From positions 1 to 64,000 of IMG/VR virus record IMGVR_UViG_3300031949_000018: DNA of 64,000 nt; one strand, written 5' to 3'. The notes below the pieces were generated by a model. It ran no database searches, was not told where the DNA came from, and was given only the letters and a program-made list of their open reading frames with translations. Position numbers and translations under genes: made by a program. The DNA comes from a virus (Duplodnaviria > Caudoviricetes). Shown here piece after piece: positions 5,202-40,364 of this stretch (position 1 is the stretch's first letter; every line of letters starts with the position of its first letter).

Positions 5202-5411
5202 CTACTTATTCTTCTTCCTCGTGCGATAGTTGGCGGCCATCTCCGCCATCGCCCGTGCCAGCACCTTTGCCGGCTTTAGTTTCCAACCTGACGGGCCGGA
5301 GCCGGACTTACCGGGTCCGCCGCGGCGCCTCCAGTACTCCTGCCCTTCCGTCCCCCATACGCTCTGAGGTGCGTACACCGGAGCCCTGGTCTTCATGACA
5401 ACCTCCAACAA
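5202..5411 (-). CDS. Small basic hypothetical protein
   Basis: ORF between tRNAs. Confidence 0.45.
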   Translation of the reverse strand: MLEVVMKTRAPVYAPQSVWGTEGQEYWRRRGGPGKSGSGPSGWKLKPAKVLARAMAEMAANYRTRKKNK

Positions 5412-5412
5412 A

Positions 5413-5504
5413 TGGTCCCGGCGCTCGGATTCGAACCGAGACCCAACACCAGTCCGGTGCGGAAGAGTCTATAAATCTCTGGGCCTACGCCTGTGGACGC
5501 CGGG
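5413..5504 (-). tRNA. Atypical class-II-like tRNA, anticodon TAT (Ile?)
   Basis: CCCGGCG/CGCCGGG acceptor, perfect T-arm, CCA, long variable hairpin, loop TT-TAT-AG with A31:A39 mismatch. Confidence 0.6.
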
Positions 5505-13101: not shown

Positions 13102-14493
13102 TCACCTGAGATTCTTGAGTCGGTTCTTCATCTCCTCCGATGCCTTGTTCCTCACCTGCGACTCGGGGGTCTTCTCGCCGGGCTCCCTGGCCAGATCCCT
13201 CTGGGCGGACTCCTCCAGATTATAGAGGCGCATCCGGCTCTTATCCACTCCAACTACAAACCTCCGATACTTGGCCGGGTCGTCGAACCTGTTCTTGAGC
13301 TGCTTGAAGAGGAGCTGGCCCAGCTTCTCCAGTTCCTCGGAGCTCATGGCCGCGTACATGAAGTCCGCGGTGAACGGGAGTCCGATCGACTCGCTGGTGT
13401 CTGTCATCTCCACGTCGGAGGCGGACATCCCGCTTCTGGTCGTCTGGGTGGCGGTGACCACCGGGACCTTGTGTTCCACGGCCAGGCCCCTGAGTTCCTC
13501 GGCGATCGCCTTGATGATCGTGTAGCTGTTGGCACCCATGGCGGCCTTGATCCTCGAGCTGGCGCAGATGTTGATGTAGTCCACGTAGATGATGTCGGGC
13601 CGAAAGTTCTTCTTGATCTTGAGTTCCTTGATGAGGGCCCGAAAGTGACCGACGTGCGCCCCGGCCGTGGGGTACTCCTTGATGATGAGCTTTCCCGCCG
13701 TGCGCTCCCTGACCTTGGCCACCTTCCTGTCGTAGACGTCCTTTGGCAGTTGGATAAGTTCCTCGAGCTTGGTATCGAGAAGGTTGGCGTCGATTCTTTC
13801 GGCGATCTTCTCCTCCGCCATCTCCATCGTGATGTAGAGGACGTTCTTCCCGTCCATCATGTTGTGGGCGGCCTGGTGGCCCATGATGAGCGTCTTGCCC
13901 ACACCGGTCCCCGCCAGGATGACAGTCAAGGTCTTCTTCGGGATACCGCCCTTGGTTATGATGTTGAAGAATTCGATGTCGAACGGGACGCGCTCTTCCT
14001 TCGAGTGATAGAAGTCGAACCGACGGTCGGAGTCGTTGAGGTAGTCGTGTCCGACATGCTCGTCGAAACCGACCGACAGGGCGTCGGCAAGCATGTCCGG
14101 GATCGAGTCTGGGAGTTGATTCTTGTCCCCGTTCTCGATTATCATCGACGCGGCGATCAGTGCGATGTATATCGCCTTGTCCTTACAGAACTTCTCGGTC
14201 CGTTCGAGCAGGTATGTGTAGTCGGTGGTCTCCGGCGTCATCTCGTCGATGATGACCTTGGCCGACCGGAACGTGGGTTCCTTCAACCCGTTCTTCTGCT
14301 TAAGGTCGATATGGAGGGCCTCCTTCGTCGGAGGCGCCCCGTACTTCTGGAAATAGTCGTTGATGATCTCGAACACACTCTTTTCCGGTTCGTCAGAGAA
14401 GTATTCCGCCTTGATGTGCGGCAGCACCTTCCTGGCGTACGGCTCGTTGAACACGAGGTGGGACAGTATCGTCTTCTGTATCGTGAAGTCCAT
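13102..14493 (-). CDS. 41: Replicative DNA helicase (T4 gp41)
   Basis: AGTGVGKT, YITMEMAE, DYINI, KQLKNR. Confidence 0.95.
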   Translation of the reverse strand: MDFTIQKTILSHLVFNEPYARKVLPHIKAEYFSDEPEKSVFEIINDYFQKYGAPPTKEALHIDLKQKNGLKEPTFRSAKVIIDEMTPETTDYTYLLERTEKFCKDKAIYIALIAASMIIENGDKNQLPDSIPDMLADALSVGFDEHVGHDYLNDSDRRFDFYHSKEERVPFDIEFFNIITKGGIPKKTLTVILAGTGVGKTLIMGHQAAHNMMDGKNVLYITMEMAEEKIAERIDANLLDTKLEELIQLPKDVYDRKVAKVRERTAGKLIIKEYPTAGAHVGHFRALIKELKIKKNFRPDIIYVDYINICASSRIKAAMGANSYTIIKAIAEELRGLAVEHKVPVVTATQTTRSGMSASDVEMTDTSESIGLPFTADFMYAAMSSEELEKLGQLLFKQLKNRFDDPAKYRRFVVGVDKSRMRLYNLEESAQRDLAREPGEKTPESQVRNKASEEMKNRLKNLR

Positions 14494-14921: not shown

Positions 14922-15974
14922 TCACAGGGCCTCCACTTCCTGCCTAGAGGTGTCCTCTGGGGTGCCGTAGCTGTATTCAGCCTTGACTCCCTCGTTGATC
15001 TGGTCGAGCACCTCCTTAGTGAAGAAGCGCTCTGGGTCGTCATAGATCGTCTTGCCAAACTGCTTAGATCCGTCCGGCAACTCGTATCTAGTGCTCACCT
15101 TCTTAAAAACCCCGTAGCGCTCTGCCAGATCCAGCAGGCCATAGTACCTATCCAACCCGCCGGAATACGTCAACAGCACGTCCACTTGTTTATTTTCGCG
15201 AGAGAGTCGGCTTTTCCACATCTTGACGTGGATCACGTTGCCGATCACCTCATCGCCGACTTTCTCCTTGCGCTTGGACAGCATGGCGATCTGGTCAGCA
15301 GAGAACTTCAGGCCTCCACCTCCGGAGATTTCTTGGGTAGGGTACATCGACCCGATGGCGGCGTAGGTGTGGTTGGTGACCAGGATGGGAACCTTGGCCC
15401 TGGCTAATTTGAGACGGAGAACTCGGAACGCTGCACGGATGATCCCCGCCCGAGTCATGTCCTTCGTTTCCTTGCCCTCCGCCGTGTCCTCCATCTCCTT
15501 TGAGGTGGAGAGCATTCCCAGGGAATCGAGTGCCATCATGAGTTTGGGGCGCTCGTTCACCGGGGTCTCGATGTACTTGTCAAGAAAGGTGATCGCCTTG
15601 AACCTGAACTCCTGAACCGTGGAAGGCTCGCCGATGATGACCCTGTCGATGTCGATGCCTCGGCCCAACATCATCTTCTTGGTCACCGCTGACTCGGTGT
15701 CATAGTAGAGAACGCCGCCTTCGGGATTGGCGTCGAGAAACGACTTGACGATCCCAAGGATGAAGAACGTCTTGCCGGTGCTCGTTTCACCCGCGAAGGC
15801 AATGGCCTTGTTGTCAGGGATCCCCCCGAACAGATCGGCGCTGAATACCGCGTTGAGGACATACGAGCCGGTGTCGATAAAGCCGCCGAACTCGGCGGCG
15901 GCCGTACCGTCTGATGCCATGGAGAGGTCCTCGTCCTTGAGGGCCTCCACCATGTTCTTGAAGAACTTAGACAA
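14922..15974 (-). CDS. uvsX: RecA-like recombinase UvsX (probable TTG start)
   Basis: AGETSTGKT, DSLGML, GGGGLKF, KSRLSREN. Confidence 0.95.
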   Translation of the reverse strand: MSKFFKNMVEALKDEDLSMASDGTAAAEFGGFIDTGSYVLNAVFSADLFGGIPDNKAIAFAGETSTGKTFFILGIVKSFLDANPEGGVLYYDTESAVTKKMMLGRGIDIDRVIIGEPSTVQEFRFKAITFLDKYIETPVNERPKLMMALDSLGMLSTSKEMEDTAEGKETKDMTRAGIIRAAFRVLRLKLARAKVPILVTNHTYAAIGSMYPTQEISGGGGLKFSADQIAMLSKRKEKVGDEVIGNVIHVKMWKSRLSRENKQVDVLLTYSGGLDRYYGLLDLAERYGVFKKVSTRYELPDGSKQFGKTIYDDPERFFTKEVLDQINEGVKAEYSYGTPEDTSRQEVEAL

Positions 15975-16293
15975 ACGGGAACTCCTTGCCCACGTCAAAC
16001 GTGTCTCTTTTCCAAGCATTTGAAGTTCTCAACATCACCACTTTCTTACGCCTATCTCCATAGCTCAGGCGCTTCGCGACATAGGATTCCGCGAACTTAT
16101 CATTAAGTGTCTTCGTTGTGAAGCGAAAGTGTGGTACGCCATTCACTTCTACCAAGGTACCCTTGTACAAACGCTGTTTGTTTCCTGACTGGAAATTGCC
16201 ATAGCCCTTCCACCAAACGCTGGCGCCTCTGTCATGCACCCATCTCTTTACTTGGCCGCCGGGCATAACTGCGTGTATTTTTTCATATTTCAT
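15967..16293 (-). CDS. Hypothetical protein
   Basis: ORF track; coupled to neighbours. Confidence 0.6.
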   Translation of the reverse strand: MKYEKIHAVMPGGQVKRWVHDRGASVWWKGYGNFQSGNKQRLYKGTLVEVNGVPHFRFTTKTLNDKFAESYVAKRLSYGDRRKKVVMLRTSNAWKRDTFDVGKEFPFV

Positions 16294-26455: not shown

Positions 26456-26620
26456 TTACACCCCGTTACATAGGTTGATGTCGAGCTCATTGTCCCAGGA
26501 CCAGACGCCGCCACCACCATCTTCGCACCACATCTTGAAGCGGTTGGGTGGTAGATCGATGTGAACGAAGAGTAGGTAACCCAGGAAGACACCTAGGATA
26601 AAGCCGACGCTGAAGTTCAT
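26456..26620 (-). CDS. Small membrane protein (absent from the ORF track)
   Basis: MNFSVGFILGVFLGYLLF...; ATGA overlap with the upstream stop. Confidence 0.55.
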   Translation of the reverse strand: MNFSVGFILGVFLGYLLFVHIDLPPNRFKMWCEDGGGGVWSWDNELDINLCNGV

Positions 26621-27855
26621 GAGAAAAACGCCTCTAGTGAAGACGCCTTCTGAGGTGGGGCGTGGGCCTGCTTCTTCGCCTCCGAGTACGTCTTGATGAG
26701 TCCGTCGACCACAGCCTTGTTGTTGATCTGCCTCTTCCAGAACTCGAAAGACATCTCCCTCCAGTCCATCCTCATCCCTGGGTCTCCGTTTATCTTGTCC
26801 ATGAGCTCAGCGGTTTCCTTCTGGGTGTCTGCCGATAGCCAGACCGTGCCGTTGTTCTCCGTTTCTACCAGGGGCTTACCGGTGACCCGGTCCAGTACGT
26901 GCTGACCGAAGTGCCGGTGAAAGAGGGGGATGGAGCCAACCGAGGCACACTCGGCGTGGCAGTACTCGACGTTCTGGCCATAGAGTTCTGGCTTGAGGTG
27001 ATAAAGGTTGCTGGCGAAACCCGAGCGGCTGAGGCGCTCGAGCATCTCGGCGTTGACGTAGGGGGGATAGCAGAATGGTGCTAGCCCGTATCCCTCCTTG
27101 CCTGCGTCGACGTTGCCCTTGAACTTCCTGAAGAAGTCCTGTAGGTCTCGGGGTTGGGTTTTGCCGTGGCCATCGTGATAGAGGACGATGGCGTACTGGA
27201 TCGACGCCTCGAGTCCCTCAAGGATGGTGCGGTATCCTCGTGACCTGAGCTCGTCGTTGTGGAAGTCGATCATGTCGGTTGGGCCCTTCCATTGGGCCGT
27301 GCGACCGATCCACCTCACCGTCTTCCTGTCGATCTCGTCCAGTGGGCGCCAGTACTTTGCCCGAGTCTCATCGAACGCGAACCCCGTCACACACATCTCT
27401 ATGAAGGGGGTGGTGATCCCGCTCTTCTGCATCCAGTTGAACAGGGCACCCTTCTTCGAGTGTGCGATGACGAGGTCGACGCTGCGAAAGTAGCGATCGA
27501 TGTTGGCGTTGTCGTGAAGGGTCTTATAGGAGTGGTCATGATGAACCGCGATCTTCTTGGTCTGGAGCATCTCCACCATCTTGATGAAGTTGTCCTGGCA
27601 CTCCTTGGGGTGCTTGCGGTTGGGCATGGAGTAGAAGACAACGGCGTCGAAGGTGTCCAGCTTGTAGACCAGGGCGTCCAACGCCGAATCGTCGCCCATC
27701 ATCACCGGCGTGTAGACGAGATCGTTGGGCCGGTGCCACGTCTTGTCGATCGTGGCGAAGACCTCGCAATTCTTGTAGTAGCGGGAAAATTCTATGGCGT
27801 TCTTGGTGACGCCGCAACCCTCAACACCCTTGCCCAGAAACAGCGCTATCTTCAT
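26617..27855 (-). CDS. agt: DNA alpha-glucosyltransferase-like GT-B enzyme
   Basis: MKIALFLGKGVEGCGVTK matches the T4 Agt N-terminus (MRICIFMARGLEGCGVTK); VRWIGR, EY...E. Confidence 0.8.
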   Translation of the reverse strand: MKIALFLGKGVEGCGVTKNAIEFSRYYKNCEVFATIDKTWHRPNDLVYTPVMMGDDSALDALVYKLDTFDAVVFYSMPNRKHPKECQDNFIKMVEMLQTKKIAVHHDHSYKTLHDNANIDRYFRSVDLVIAHSKKGALFNWMQKSGITTPFIEMCVTGFAFDETRAKYWRPLDEIDRKTVRWIGRTAQWKGPTDMIDFHNDELRSRGYRTILEGLEASIQYAIVLYHDGHGKTQPRDLQDFFRKFKGNVDAGKEGYGLAPFCYPPYVNAEMLERLSRSGFASNLYHLKPELYGQNVEYCHAECASVGSIPLFHRHFGQHVLDRVTGKPLVETENNGTVWLSADTQKETAELMDKINGDPGMRMDWREMSFEFWKRQINNKAVVDGLIKTYSEAKKQAHAPPQKASSLEAFFS

Positions 27856-28291
27856 ACTGAACCTTCTTCTTGCCTGGGGGTCTACCTTTCCTACGAAAGG
27901 GGACACTTCCATCATGAACTTCTGGGTTATTTATATAGCCCGCGAGATCGGCCAGGAACTTTTCTACGAAGGGCGCGCTGTTGAGTTTCCGGTTCAATCC
28001 GGAAGGGTGTGGGGCCTTGAAGTAGTTGTGGGTATAGCGACTCACGATGGCGTGGGTAACCGACCCCATGACCACTATCTTGCCCTTGTGGAGGGCCAGA
28101 ACCGACTGCAGGAAGTCCACCTCCTCATCGGTCGGGGAGAACCTCCCAGGGCGGTGCTGGATATTCACGAATGAGTAGTGGCCCACGCCGACGACGTTCA
28201 TCCATCCCACGACTACCCTCTGGAATTTATTCTTGAACAGAGAGAGCCCCGGCGCCTTAGCCGGATTCATTCCTATGACAAGGACATTCAT
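27821..28291 (-). CDS. UDG-superfamily fold protein
   Basis: VLVIGMNP and PHPSGLNR motifs. Confidence 0.65.
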   Translation of the reverse strand: MNVLVIGMNPAKAPGLSLFKNKFQRVVVGWMNVVGVGHYSFVNIQHRPGRFSPTDEEVDFLQSVLALHKGKIVVMGSVTHAIVSRYTHNYFKAPHPSGLNRKLNSAPFVEKFLADLAGYINNPEVHDGSVPFRRKGRPPGKKKVQYEDSAVSGQGC

Positions 28292-34018: not shown

Positions 34019-34672
34019 TCATAGTGACGGGTGTGGTTCACTAGGGCAGCGCCTCAACATACCCCTCTCGACGGCTTCCTCATACTCGAGAACGAGGAAC
34101 ACCTGATAATATGACGGGGCGCGATCGTCACGACCCCAGGTGTCGCGCATCCGATACTCCGGGAGAGACTCGCCGTAGTTATCCAGGTAAGTCTTCAGGG
34201 TTGAGGCCATGCCGTCGAGCATCATCTTGGTGGCCAACTCATTGGTGCCCTGGTGGAACTTGAATTGGGCGGTTGGCTCGATGCAGACGTTCTTCATTTT
34301 TGTGTATAAGACACAGGCGCTGGCGCACCCTGCGGTGATGTGCACCGAGATGTTCTCCATCTCTAGCGCTTCGCGAATGGTAAGGAAATACTCGATGCTG
34401 CCGCCGCCGCTGTCTGGTACCTTGACGACCAGGCGAGACTTTCTCTCGCGGGCCAGATCGGCTTCCACGGAGAGCTTCTCAATGAAATCACCGGCCCTGA
34501 TCTGATACTCGTCCTCGTCGTCGGGAGAGTAATCCTTTCCGTCGACAGCAGAATTGGCGACGTAGTCGCCGAGTGATGAATACATGACTGGCTCAGCGGC
34601 TAGGGCCGAGCCAGACAACAAAAGTGCGATGGTGAGGTACTTAAGCGATTCACGTAGGGTTAATGTAGACAT
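34019..34672 (-). CDS. Secreted ClpP/crotonase-like protein
   Basis: Signal peptide; GGGS, CASAC, FKFHQ. Confidence 0.6.
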   Translation of the reverse strand: MSTLTLRESLKYLTIALLLSGSALAAEPVMYSSLGDYVANSAVDGKDYSPDDEDEYQIRAGDFIEKLSVEADLARERKSRLVVKVPDSGGGSIEYFLTIREALEMENISVHITAGCASACVLYTKMKNVCIEPTAQFKFHQGTNELATKMMLDGMASTLKTYLDNYGESLPEYRMRDTWGRDDRAPSYYQVFLVLEYEEAVERGMLRRCPSEPHPSL

Positions 34673-34697
34673 GGAATCCTCCTCTATCTCAAGAAGA

Positions 34698-34726
34698 ACT
34701 ATATCACAATCCTGGCCAGATGTAAA
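34698..34726 (-). promoter_or_regulatory. Sigma70-type promoter
   Basis: TTTACA-N17-TATAGT. Confidence 0.65.
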
Positions 34727-34762
34727 TAGCCTAGTTTTATTCTTTTAGGTCAATGGCTTGCA

Positions 34763-35431
34763 TTACCAGAGGAGATCGAAATAGCCCTGCATTACCTTAG
34801 AAGCCCTGGCGCGACGGCCATTCCGGTGATCCTCTACGGCGTCGTCGCGAAACCGGTATGTCCTGACCTTGTCGCCCCTCATCCCAGATCCGACCTGGGC
34901 ACTCCTCACCTCATTGGACGCGGTGTTCGCCTCCCTCGACGCCATGTCGTGAAGACGGCGGCGCAGCTCGGTCGTGGCCTCGGCGACGTTCGCCTCCTTG
35001 CTGCGTGACTGAACGGTGACGACTATGTTGGTGGGGGTGTGCGTCATTCTAACCGAGCACTGCTTCTTGTTGCGGTGCTGGCCTCCGGCGCCCGTCCCAG
35101 AGAAGAACTCGACGCGGACATCCTCGGGTCGATACTGAAACTGGACAGACGACGCCTTGACCACCGCCACGGTAACGGTGGAGGTATGGGCCCTTCCAGA
35201 TCTCTCGCTGTCTGGGATCCTCTGGATGCGATGGCCGCCAGCCTCGAACTCTATGCGGGGATCTGCGTCTATGATGGTGGACCAATAACCTGGACGGCGC
35301 TCGGAGCGCTGGCACTCTCAGCCGAATCGGGTGAACATCCTCGAGTAGGCGTCGGCCAACTCAGCCACGAACGCCTTGCTGTCGTCGCCACCCTCGGCGG
35401 CTCGTATCTCGATGGAATATCTCGTCCTCAT
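34763..35431 (-). CDS. RF1-like peptide release factor lacking domain 1, with an in-frame TGA at codon 38 (35318-35320)
   Basis: AGGAG RBS + ATG 35431; IEIRAAEGG..., then TGA, then in frame FEAGGHRIQRIP.SE..GR.HTS, GAGGQH.NK, R..K.RTY.F. Confidence 0.85.
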
Positions 35432-35447
35432 GGCCACTCCTAGAAAT

Positions 35448-35521
35448 TGGCAGGTGATGGGGGAATCGAACCCGCATATTCCGTTTTGGAGACGGACGCT
35501 CTACCATTGAGCTAAACACCT
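35448..35521 (-). tRNA. tRNA-Trp(CCA)
   Basis: Cloverleaf, CT-CCA-AA, G73, CCA; U6:U67 and C50:C64 mismatches. Confidence 0.9.
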
Positions 35522-35522
35522 A

Positions 35523-35614
35523 TGGCGGAAGAGTGAGGCCTTGATCCCCAGACGTGGTATCAGCACGTCCCAATCGCTTTCGAGGCGATGCCCACCCGAG
35601 TGAGTTACTCTTCC
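35523..35614 (-). tRNA. tRNA-Ser(CGA)
   Basis: Long variable arm, CT-CGA-AA, G73, CCA. Confidence 0.85.
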
Positions 35615-35669
35615 AATAATAACCCCGTTGGGGGCCTCTCGGCCAAGTCCAACGGGGAGTAAATCTACG

Positions 35670-35748
35670 TGGCTCCCGGGCCTGGAGTCGAACCAAGATC
35701 TTCCCTCCTTTCAAGGGGAGGGATGCTCTGGCATTGAGCTACCCAGGA
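35670..35748 (-). tRNA. Atypical tRNA with an extended anticodon arm (loop CCTTGAAA)
   Basis: TCCTGGG/CCCGGGA acceptor, T-arm, CCA; 7-bp anticodon stem; D-loop lacks GG. Confidence 0.55.
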
Positions 35749-35782
35749 ACACCATTCATATTTATCACGCCTCCCGCATGTG

Positions 35783-36010
35783 TCAATGGCCGACCCACTG
35801 TTTTTTCCTGCGGGAGACGTCTTTCCAGCTGCGGACGTACCAACCTCTGGATCTGTTACGGTGGTCGACGTTCATCTTTTCACCCTCGAACCACTTGACG
35901 TGGCGATAGTAGTTGCCCCACCCGTGCTCGTAGGCGATCCCGCCTCGCTTGCCCCAGAGCCAGTGCCAGACGCCACCTACGTCCCTGTACTGGCGCTTTA
36001 TCTTCTTCAT
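35783..36010 (-). CDS. Small basic Trp-rich hypothetical protein
   Basis: ORF track. Confidence 0.55.
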   Translation of the reverse strand: MKKIKRQYRDVGGVWHWLWGKRGGIAYEHGWGNYYRHVKWFEGEKMNVDHRNRSRGWYVRSWKDVSRRKKQWVGH

Positions 36011-36049: not shown

Positions 36050-36259
36050 TCACCAGATGTCTGCACATGCTATTCTCCTCCTCATTCCTCCGTGCGCGGT
36101 CTTCATCATGATCACCGCGTATGACTGAGTGCGCGGCAGGTATATGATCTTTCGGTGCCACGACGCATGCCGGATTGGATTCGGGTCGTGCGCCTCATCC
36201 ACTTCCCATCCGTCCCCTCCGGGCGAATAGGTTTCATTTTTTAAAGTGAACCCGTACAT
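36050..36259 (-). CDS. Hypothetical protein
   Basis: ORF track. Confidence 0.5.
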   Translation of the reverse strand: MYGFTLKNETYSPGGDGWEVDEAHDPNPIRHASWHRKIIYLPRTQSYAVIMMKTAHGGMRRRIACADIW

Positions 36260-36551
36260 GGGTGGTCCCGTCCTGCTGTGTCTTCGTCATCGTCGTCACG
36301 TCCTTAATCCACTTTGCCTGAGGGTGATACTTGCAGAAGAAGGTGTTCGGAAACTTACTCTTTCCAAAGACGGCGATCACCGGATTCTTCTTATCGATGA
36401 CCGTATGGAAGTACAGAGAACCCGGGTTTCTCAGCCCTTTCTCCAGTAATTCGAAGCACTCATTCTCTGTGTTCATGATGAGTTCATCCCTGGGCTTTTT
36501 GGTTTCCCAAATGAAATTCACCCTGGCTCGGTCGTATGGGTTGTTCCACAT
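36234..36551 (-). CDS. MWNNPYDRAR-family protein A
   Basis: Shared N-terminus with 36551-36793. Confidence 0.7.
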   Translation of the reverse strand: MWNNPYDRARVNFIWETKKPRDELIMNTENECFELLEKGLRNPGSLYFHTVIDKKNPVIAVFGKSKFPNTFFCKYHPQAKWIKDVTTMTKTQQDGTTHVRVHFKK

Positions 36552-36793
36552 TACGGATGGTACTCACAGATGAAGATTTGTTCTCCTGATCGTACATGTC
36601 GTTCTCGGGGAAACGACATGCGCATCGTTATGCGTCTGTCATACATGGTCACGCTGACGACTACGCCGGTGGTGTCGGCTATCTTCTGCATCATCTTATC
36701 TTCGGCTCCCATTTTAAGTTCATACGGAGGTTGCATAGTCCTCCATAGGAAGGTCACCCTGGCTCGGTCGTATGGGTTGTTCCACATGTTCAT
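36551..36793 (-). CDS. MWNNPYDRAR-family protein B
   Basis: Shared N-terminus with 36234-36551. Confidence 0.7.
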   Translation of the reverse strand: MNMWNNPYDRARVTFLWRTMQPPYELKMGAEDKMMQKIADTTGVVVSVTMYDRRITMRMSFPRERHVRSGEQIFICEYHP

Positions 36794-37028: not shown

Positions 37029-37577
37029 TTACGCGTACTTCCTACGCCTCTTTAGCTTGGCGGCACTGAGGTGCCGTATCTTCCTGTCCTGAGACTCAGA
37101 CCGCTGACGGATCTCCGCGAAGCGATCGGCGCAGAACGTCGCGGCCGGGCTATTCGGCTTGACCATCGGGATCACGTTGCAAGTCCCGGTGATGTAGCCG
37201 ATGGCCTCCTTGATGACGATGTTCGAACCCGCTGACTTGTCGGAGTTGATGTCGAGGTGAACCTCGCTGTGTCGATCCCCGAGTGCGTCGGCGATGCGCA
37301 GGTACATGTCCGCGATCTTGTAGACCTCGTTCATGAGTCGCATCGTCGGCCTGTTCTTGACCTGGTCGAAGTCCCTCTCGCGAGTGACCTCACCGAATAT
37401 CTTGCATCCGCGGCAGCCGTCGTAGTGAACGACGACGCAGATGGCGTAGTCAGCGACCCACTGGCCCCCGACCTTGTGGCGCTCGCTGTCGCCGCCGACG
37501 TAGATCTTCGTCTCGGCGCTCTGGGCGCTAATGAAGGCCTTCACGGCCTCTATGTCCATCTTCCGTCTAAAGTCCAT
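37029..37577 (-). CDS. RNase H-like YkuK/DUF458 family protein
   Basis: IYVGGDS, RLMNEV, EVHLDIN, KP...AA..CAD. Confidence 0.8.
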   Translation of the reverse strand: MDFRRKMDIEAVKAFISAQSAETKIYVGGDSERHKVGGQWVADYAICVVVHYDGCRGCKIFGEVTRERDFDQVKNRPTMRLMNEVYKIADMYLRIADALGDRHSEVHLDINSDKSAGSNIVIKEAIGYITGTCNVIPMVKPNSPAATFCADRFAEIRQRSESQDRKIRHLSAAKLKRRRKYA

Positions 37578-39086: not shown

Positions 39087-39329
39087 CTATTTTATTATGT
39101 CTGTCGGTAGCTTGACGTACGGCCCCGTGACCTTGACCGCGTTGCGACGGGCCATCTCTATGAGGATCCTGATGTCAGACCCCACTATGTGGTAGTGCCA
39201 GTCGTCCCTAACCGCGTGGTTCCACATCCACTCTAGCCACTCCGACGAACCCGGCGTTGGTGGTTCAGCGTTATATTCGCGATCGACTTTTTTCGCCTTC
39301 ACGAGTTCGTATCCAAAATCCTCAGCCAT
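39087..39329 (-). CDS. Hypothetical protein
   Basis: ORF track. Confidence 0.6.
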   Translation of the reverse strand: MAEDFGYELVKAKKVDREYNAEPPTPGSSEWLEWMWNHAVRDDWHYHIVGSDIRILIEMARRNAVKVTGPYVKLPTDIIK

Positions 39330-39738
39330 CTATTTTCCTTCCTGGCAGGGTGCCGTGATTTCCCGTGTGACTAGGCGCCTGCCAGTCGGCAGGTTTAACG
39401 AGATCGGGCAGCCCTAGTGGGTTAGGTCTCGATTCCTTAACGCCGAGCTGCTTATTCATATTCGCTGCATGAACCCGATCCCAGGCCTTCTCCGAATCGA
39501 TACCGAAGAGATCTAGTGTCCCGATCGCGACTACACAGATATCGATGAGTGCGTCTACCACCTCCTCGGCGTCTTTGTCCTCGACGGCGTCGCCCATTTC
39601 ATTCAACTCCTCGAATATGAAGTTGAGTCGAAACTCAAGGAGCATTTGCTTCTTCTCGTCGTCAAAGTCTGCAACCTTCTCGTGAAAGCCGTAGTGGACG
39701 TGCATGTCGTGAATGTCTTTTACCCAGTCCGTCGTCAT
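39322..39738 (-). CDS. MazG/HisE-like dNTP pyrophosphatase (functional gp56 analogue candidate)
   Basis: EELNE, DALID...V..G, AW..VH.ANM.K, D..KP..W..P. Confidence 0.8.
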   Translation of the reverse strand: MTTDWVKDIHDMHVHYGFHEKVADFDDEKKQMLLEFRLNFIFEELNEMGDAVEDKDAEEVVDALIDICVVAIGTLDLFGIDSEKAWDRVHAANMNKQLGVKESRPNPLGLPDLVKPADWQAPSHTGNHGTLPGRKIDG

Positions 39739-40364
39739 CTCTTCGCTATTCCTTTCATTTTCTCGCCGGCCTTGTCGTTGGCCTCGCGCACCTTGTTCTC
39801 GATGCTCAGCTGGGCCTCCGCCGCGGAGATCATGTCCACCATCTCTGGTTGAAACTTTATCCTAACGCCTCCGTCGAGCGCCACGATCTTCGCCCACTTC
39901 TTCTTGGCGAAGCTCCTTTTCAATCCCTCTTGTTTCCCGATGATGGTTATTCCATCGAGGTGGTCTATTTCGTGCTGCATAACTCGAGAGGTGAAATCGC
40001 TGAACTGCTTCGTCATCGTCGACCCGTTAGGAAGGGTATACCTGAGCCTGATGATGCGGTGTCTCTTTATCTTCAGGAAGAGCCCTGGGAATGTTAGGCA
40101 TCCCTCGACGAGTTCAGTCGTGGCCTCGGACGACGATACGATCTTCGGGTTGTAGAACACCCCGCACGGGTCGGATGCCACCGAGAACACCCTGTATGGT
40201 ATTCCGACCTGCGGTCCCGAGAGGCCTAGGCCTCTCCTGGCCAGCATGGTCTCCACCAGGTTGTTGGCGAACTCTATCGGGTCAAACGGAGGATGGGCGA
40301 AGTCGAAGCCCTGGGCCGCCCGGTAGAGTACTGGATCCGAGTGCGTGACGAGGTCCAGGATCAC
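39735..40364 (-). CDS. def: Peptide deformylase
   Basis: GLGLSGPQVG, EGCLT, QHEIDHLDG. Confidence 0.92.
   Translation of the reverse strand: MILDLVTHSDPVLYRAAQGFDFAHPPFDPIEFANNLVETMLARRGLGLSGPQVGIPYRVFSVASDPCGVFYNPKIVSSSEATTELVEGCLTFPGLFLKIKRHRIIRLRYTLPNGSTMTKQFSDFTSRVMQHEIDHLDGITIIGKQEGLKRSFAKKKWAKIVALDGGVRIKFQPEMVDMISAAEAQLSIENKVREANDKAGEKMKGIAKR

Follow-up and report, generated by a model that had tools for sequence, protein, structure and literature searches.

Control of release-factor genes by recoding is, to our knowledge, known for prfB only. In Q-beta, the in-frame UGA of coat/A1 is read at low efficiency by the near-cognate tRNA-Trp, which yields an extended functional protein. The RF2 gene prfB is recoded by a +1 frameshift, and in a 2025 survey of 12,753 genomes no prfB-like recoding is known for prfA (PMC12421855). 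Two further described systems lie close to the gene analysed here: PrfH, which acts with RtcB2 in the rescue of damaged ribosomes (PMC1586002; 10.1101/2025.01.09.632186), and the TGA-recoded Jade phages, in which RF1 forms part of a 'code change module' (10.1101/2021.08.26.457843). Searches of the full-text literature, whose incomplete coverage leaves novelty unproven, turned up no account of an in-frame UGA in phage release-factor genes, and papers listing phage release factors leave an internal UGA unmentioned.

The gene lies on the minus strand of a 64,000-nt stretch of DNA (the window) taken from IMG/VR record IMGVR_UViG_3300031949_000018, an 80.5-kb contig that is approximately 49% complete and has a GC content of 54.5%. 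It opens at an ATG at 35431, 5 nt downstream of a Shine-Dalgarno sequence read from the sequence (AGGAG, 35441-35437, minus strand), and its first 37 codons (35321..35431) lead to an in-frame UGA at codon 38 (35318..35320; context GGC UGA G). The same frame continues for 184 codons (34766..35317) up to a TAA (34765-34763), giving a complete readthrough ORF (P0001, 34763..35431, minus strand) of 222 codons plus TAA that is supported by its translation, Pfam, NCBIfam and AlphaFold2. A tRNA-Trp(CCA) gene (35448..35521) is located on the same strand, its 3' end 16 nt upstream of the ATG. The Shine-Dalgarno sequence, the start codon, the 37 codons, the TGA, the 222-codon continuation and the tRNA gene had all been described from the sequence in a preliminary description, and their coordinates check out. 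In the mechanical ORF listing, the release-factor gene appears only as a 135-aa protein starting from a GTG at 35170 (P0002). A Logan contig, assembled independently from a soil-metagenome run that is probably the source sample, is identical to the window across 34700-35600 at a depth of 17. That DNA run was the sole matching run among public runs, with no RNA run carrying the window DNA.

Viral and metagenome contigs were scanned by pattern, with confirmation by tblastn, and yielded 241 related loci comprising 172 distinct gene sequences, the proteins of which are 44-59% identical to that of the window and the loci of which range in GC content from 34% to 64%. It had been proposed that the gene is split at a conserved Trp of RF1 and that a tBLASTn comparison of TGA with TGG at this column would reveal whether the stop is conserved. 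The codon is TGA in 241 of 241 loci and 172 of 172 distinct genes, which makes it a real conserved recoding site; neither TGG, TAA nor TAG at the column, nor any other in-frame stop within the match, was found in the 241 loci. In the HMMER alignment the TGA falls on Trp144 of E. coli RF1, a column occupied by TGG in a bona fide bacterial prfA adjoining hemK (L162) and by TTT in an RF2. The occurrence of an in-frame TGA at one shared column is far beyond chance, and its presence in every distinct gene indicates a built-in expression gate, not damage; restriction to TGA at a single column argues for the same, since an interruption or attenuator pure and simple would be free to use other stops or other positions. 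Database proteins of approximately 222 aa show W at the Trp144 column and most likely result from the use of code 4 in calling genes on short contigs, because every DNA locus examined has TGA. Distant homologues (33-37% identity) were identified in three published huge-phage genomes (LR745206.1, LR756502.1 and LR756504.1; L164-L166). Phe or Leu occupies the Trp column in these, and an in-frame TGA occurs later in the aligned match, at codon indexes 38-53 (two such TGAs in the LR745206 homologue); the large genes next to them are unbroken when read in code 11.

Over 31 pre-UGA codons in 147 genes, entropy is 0.68, 0.47 and 1.49 at codon positions 1, 2 and 3, and identity to the window protein is 64.5% in the pre-UGA segment versus 49.5% for the whole protein, the pre-UGA segment being its best-conserved part. 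Such values point to a pre-UGA segment that is translated and under strong protein-level constraint. Both sides of the TGA are under purifying selection, and conserved coding potential flanks a conserved stop in one frame, the pattern expected of programmed readthrough. The relatives being kin, the counts of the stop context are not independent: among the 172 genes, the internal TGA is followed by A 135 times, by C 20 times, by G 17 times and never by T, and Leu at +1 after the TGA is encoded by CTN in 19 of 19 genes, whereas 35% of the other Leu codons there are TTR (TTA/TTG). The genes' own terminators (145 genes) are TAA in 135 cases (93%), TGA in eight and TAG in two, the eight terminal TGAs having T as their next base in every case (TGAT). 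This contrast between the internal stop and the genes' own terminators fits an internal stop that would be deliberately weak.

Pfam analysis of P0001 identified a PCRF domain (PF03462, residues 6-88, E = 2.8e-16), into which the pre-UGA segment falls as had been suggested, and an RF-1 domain (PF00472, residues 96-203, E = 1.3e-22). The best NCBIfam family is RF1 (NF001859, 188.1 bits over model positions 107-332 of 347; cut-off 400, set for the full-length protein including domain 1), with RF1, RF2 and PrfH scoring 188, 107 and 52 bits, respectively, all three under their cut-offs. P0001 is therefore assigned as an RF1-type release factor without domain 1, since its best match is RF1 and covers model positions 107-332 only. 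The absence of this domain, which had been noted before, is borne out, with approximately 105 N-terminal residues of RF1 missing, and an upstream exon for domain 1 is impossible because a tRNA gene lies directly upstream. Within the protein, the pre-UGA segment corresponds to a beta-strand and a helix with a GGDD tip (the equivalent of G120/E123), which is needed for decoding, while the post-UGA segment provides the remainder of domain 2, the GGQ domain 3 and domain 4. The GGQ catalytic motif (residues 116-118; 35078..35086, minus strand) is invariant in the family alignment A3.

An AlphaFold2 model, built from 53 family sequences, has a pLDDT of 91.7 and query-normalised TM scores of 0.84-0.87 to ribosome-bound RF1 and of approximately 0.54 to closed crystal forms. 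In this model the strand and helix formed by the pre-UGA segment are integral to domain 2, and the UGA position lies just past the first helix; termination there would leave a single strand and a single helix. Of six residues that contact the stop codon in RF1, the roles of which have been described and include the touching of stop-codon bases 1 and 2 by Thr190 of the PxT motif (PMC3974865), four are identical in the phage protein, namely G120, Q185, H197 and T198 (G14, Q70, H82 and T83). The remaining two are conservatively changed, E123 to D (D17; family-wide) and T190 to S. Once complete, the factor is likely to promote termination at UAA and UAG on host ribosomes and not to depend on domain 1 for this.

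FastTree analysis placed the UGA-gated short phage RF1-like proteins in a clade apart from bacterial RF1 and RF2 (SH-like 95). The window gene shares with this family its length of approximately 220 residues, the lack of domain 1 and the TGA at the Trp144 column, family terminators being mostly TAA, and departs from it, as an outlier among its members, in the codon-reading tripeptide (35207..35215, minus strand), which reads PAT in E. coli RF1, PPT in 165 of the 172 related genes and, as the preliminary description had stated, PDS here. With the PxT threonine, RF1 discriminates between A and G at the second base of the stop codon. The window protein, L001/L082 and three database proteins were resolved as a five-member subclade (SH-like 96) in which Thr is lost from all five tripeptides (PDS in the window, and PAN, PSG, PKN and PRN in the four sister sequences). 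RF1-like codon reading is plausible for the window copy because Ser retains the hydroxyl of Thr190; such specificity is not assured, since the threonine itself is replaced. An altered stop-codon specificity in this subclade is conceivable from these tripeptides, and it could instead be that the loss of Thr marks a shift to codon-independent rescue. It is unlikely that the subclade factor has become omnipotent and would read its own internal UGA, which would create a prfB-like self-limiting loop by way of readthrough. A search of viral contigs with the sister protein P0030 returned nothing and one with the sister protein P0120 returned L001 as the sole close relative, a search of genome contigs with P0001 found only a 30%-identical bacterial release factor, and blastn against a phage collection matched the tRNA only, with no close homologue in cultured phages.

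The phage bearing this gene is classified as a soil T4-like phage because its record encodes gp41, UvsX, gp44, UvsW and gp46 homologues, a family-B polymerase and an alpha-glucosyltransferase. Window positions 26617-27915 and 39322-40364 (both minus strand) hold the latter, a T4-type DNA alpha-glucosyltransferase, and, by the tRNA island, genes for a peptide deformylase and a MazG-like pyrophosphohydrolase; the glucosyltransferase suggests glucosyl-hydroxymethylcytosine DNA in a soil phage of 54.5% GC. The record employs the standard code, in that 41 of its 100 longest non-overlapping ORFs close with TGA, and reading TGA as sense brings a gain in coverage no greater than that obtained with TAG or TAA as sense. 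The genes for the gp41-like helicase (13102-14493) and UvsX (14922-16019) end in TGA, as had been pointed out, and so do those for gp44, UvsW and a gp46-like ATPase. In the flanks of 91 relatives, the median gain with TGA as sense is 0.067 versus 0.080 for the TAG control. Genome-wide recoding of TGA is thus rejected, in agreement with the preliminary description. Each of the 15 tRNAs in the record carries a sense anticodon, with no UCA-anticodon tRNA found in its 80.5 kb; because the record is only approximately 49% complete, a suppressor tRNA could sit in the missing half. One of the ARAGORN calls, a tRNA-Ile with anticodon UAU (window 5413-5504, minus strand), is unusually long at 92 nt and may contain an insert or be a miscall.

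A single related locus, L077 (IMGVR_UViG_3300031957_002643, 335 kb), carries a tRNA with a UCA anticodon (5307-5378; called SeC by ARAGORN), and its flanks gain 27% in ORF coverage with TGA as sense against 2% with TAG. It may represent a genuinely TGA-recoded phage that also bears the gated release-factor gene. A signal similar to the gain with TGA as sense, only weaker, was seen for L033 and L154.

The release-factor gene belongs to a phage tRNA/translation island. The tRNA-Trp(CCA) scores 62.9 bits on the Rfam tRNA model, and its cloverleaf contains the U6:U67 and C50:C64 mismatches previously described. A Hirsh-type tRNA-Trp was rejected, the 11:24 pair being C11:G24 with A24 absent. Co-transcription of this tRNA with the release-factor gene is likely, because no promoter-like site was found between the two. 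It had been suggested that tRNA-Trp possibly acts as a helper and that its synteny could be checked across homologues. A conserved helper is not supported: tRNAs occur within approximately 3 kb in 97 of 147 distinct loci, and tRNA-Trp in 11 of the 147, not above other tRNA species, so adjacency to tRNA-Trp is not a family trait. Elsewhere in the island, two adjacent small ORFs located between tRNA genes (window 36234-36551 and 36551-36793, minus strand) have near-identical starts (MWNNPYDRARV...) and look like a tandem duplicate. A 182-aa protein of phrog_11311 (window 37029-37577, minus strand; L001 3669-4142) is 69% identical between the phage and its closest relative, and appears to travel with the release-factor and tRNA island, as it is encoded directly after the release-factor gene in L001. 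Directly after the release-factor gene of the window, a strong sigma-70-like promoter (34698-34726, minus strand; TTTACA, 17 nt, TG-TATAGT, 10/12 matches) precedes a 217-aa ORF with a hydrophobic N-terminal stretch and no family match.

Attention had also been drawn to a hairpin beginning 8 nt 3' of the UGA. The stem-loop itself (GCGCU-CCG-AGCGC, 5-bp stem, 35297..35309, minus strand) is present; as a signal it is indistinguishable from chance, with z = 0.03 and 91 of 200 shuffles folding at least as well. RNAalifold found no common structure in 137 contexts, and a sliding 36-nt fold across the family showed a moderate dip right after the TGA (z -0.7 to -0.8), with two other sites in the gene being stronger. 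For the majority clade, a helix 6 nt after the UGA has 69.7% of cells paired versus 64.5% in shuffles (0 of 500 shuffles reach this value) and 58 double-sided changes versus 36, figures that give moderate support at best because it was the consensus that supplied the structure. In L001, the closest relative, a 10-bp hairpin whose sequence is unrelated occupies the same place. A stimulatory hairpin is therefore possible for the family and unproven for the window. Selenocysteine recoding is not supported: no SECIS was identified, the only Rfam matches in 34600-35800 being tRNAs, the hairpin has z = 0.03, and the column is Trp in RF1.

With moderate confidence, the arrangement is interpreted as programmed UGA readthrough, in which a near-cognate tRNA-Trp competing with host RF2 would gate an RF1-type factor. 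Translation would start at the ATG at 35431 and reach the UGA at codon 38, where host RF2 would normally terminate and the 37-residue peptide set free would be of no use. A minority of ribosomes would instead accept near-cognate tRNA-Trp(CCA), which would insert Trp, the ancestral residue of the column, and allow the full factor to be completed. Its output would be low, would be set by how often tRNA-Trp misreads UGA relative to termination by RF2, and would rise when RF2 is scarce, inhibited or overloaded. An RF2-dependent switch of this kind appears to be the most economical reading of the gene.

The same UGA might act as a fixed attenuator that senses nothing and holds a potentially toxic factor at a constant level of roughly a per cent. 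Overproduced release factors are indeed harmful, with unregulated RF2 being toxic and the RF1 defect milder (PMC12421855), and the conserved weak stop context would suit a tuned leak equally well. Attenuation could, however, be achieved by a weak Shine-Dalgarno sequence or start codon, while the strict use of TGA at the Trp column (172/172) and the early TGAs elsewhere in distant relatives suggest selection for a property specific to UGA, so that a fixed attenuator seems unlikely. A different possibility concerns the product and leaves the UGA gate unchanged, namely that it rescues stalled or damaged ribosomes in the manner of PrfH or ArfB instead of terminating specifically at stop codons, a PrfH-type role having been suspected in the preliminary description. 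The protein lacks domain 1 as PrfH does, Thr of the tripeptide is lost in the five-member subclade, and a location in a tRNA island could serve counter-defence. The PrfH model TIGR03072, however, yields 51.6 bits, far short of its cut-off of 166.65, with a match confined to the GGQ domain (residues 95-193), and no RtcB (PF01139) was matched in the 80.5-kb, approximately 49% complete record, control genomes being positive. G120, Q185, H197 and T198 are kept, the serine retains the hydroxyl of Thr190, and most relatives have the canonical PPT (165 of 172). The suspected PrfH-type system is not supported by these results, and a rescue role is regarded as improbable.

It is slightly more improbable again that the gate is opened at a set time by a phage UGA suppressor tRNA or by an induced change in the host. 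The 'code change module' of the Jade phages offers a precedent for RF1 in such a setting (10.1101/2021.08.26.457843), L077 combines a UCA-anticodon tRNA with flanks that gain coverage when TGA is sense (+27%), and only about half (~49%) of the present genome was available; against this, a UCA anticodon is found in none of the 15 tRNAs of the record and nearby in only one of 147 loci, and the genes of the record contain no excess of in-frame TGA. The production of two polypeptides, or of a C-terminal GGQ protein by internal initiation, for example at the GTG at 35170, is the kind of arrangement that gene callers yield (P0002, 135 aa; P0030, P0112 and P0120, 174-182 aa). The GTG at 35170 has no Shine-Dalgarno sequence, though, no start codon after the TGA is conserved in relatives, a simple split would not need a TGA-only Trp column, and the pre-UGA segment is both the best conserved and, in the model, built into domain 2 as a strand and a helix; such a split or truncated protein is considered very improbable. 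One TGG-to-TGA change would suffice to create a pseudogene or to mimic one through sequencing error, an explanation that is effectively excluded by the TGA in 172 of 172 distinct genes, by purifying selection on both halves and by the identical Logan contig at a depth of 17.

Readthrough governed by RF2 remains the favoured reading. Bacterial RF1 (prfA; NF001859, TIGR00019) shares with the phage factor the PCRF and RF-1 domains, the GGQ motif, the fold of ribosome-bound RF1 and most stop-codon contacts; the phage factor differs in the lack of domain 1, PDS in place of PxT, a score under the family cut-off and a TGA in place of the Trp144 codon. PrfH, as part of the PrfH and RtcB2 system for rescue of damaged ribosomes (PMC1586002; 10.1101/2025.01.09.632186), is likewise short, without domain 1 and with a non-canonical tripeptide, whereas the phage factor matches the PrfH model in the GGQ domain only, has RF1-like decoding residues in domain 2 and was found without RtcB. 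In the Jade phages (10.1101/2021.08.26.457843), a phage-encoded RF1 is also linked to UGA decoding; there, TGA is recoded genome-wide in late genes, a suppressor tRNA and TrpRS are carried, and the RF1 gene is described as standard-coded, while in the window phage TGA serves as an ordinary stop and was found in frame in the release-factor gene only. Q-beta A1 resembles the proposed mechanism in the low-efficiency decoding of UGA by a normal near-cognate tRNA. In the phage release-factor gene, however, the stop replaces an ancestral Trp codon and the product is itself a termination factor, and, unlike the major protein of Q-beta, the terminated product would be a useless fragment because the stop lies near the N-terminus.

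The closest parallel is the prfB frameshift (PMC12421855), with which the phage gene shares an early in-frame UGA in a class-I release-factor gene, competition with RF2 termination (for the phage gene, as proposed) and an interruption conserved across a wide phylogenetic range. The phage gene differs in that homology continues past the TGA in the 0 frame with no change of frame, in the lack of a CUU slippery codon and of an SD-like (AGGGGG-like) stimulator (context ...CGA UUC GGC UGA G), and in being RF1-type, phage-borne and without domain 1. As an RF1-type product is not expected to read UGA, this would amount to cross-regulation by host RF2, not self-regulation. An RF1-type gene with a strictly conserved in-frame UGA is carried by hundreds of phages. 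If the proposed reading is correct, these phages would monitor or exploit host RF2 activity by means of a compact natural sensor of UGA termination efficiency, and a systematic annotation error would be explained, in which gene callers truncate the gene (135 aa here) or use code 4 on short contigs. Beside the frameshift of prfB, there would then be a second recoding switch in the termination machinery, one that operates by readthrough and is owned by a virus.
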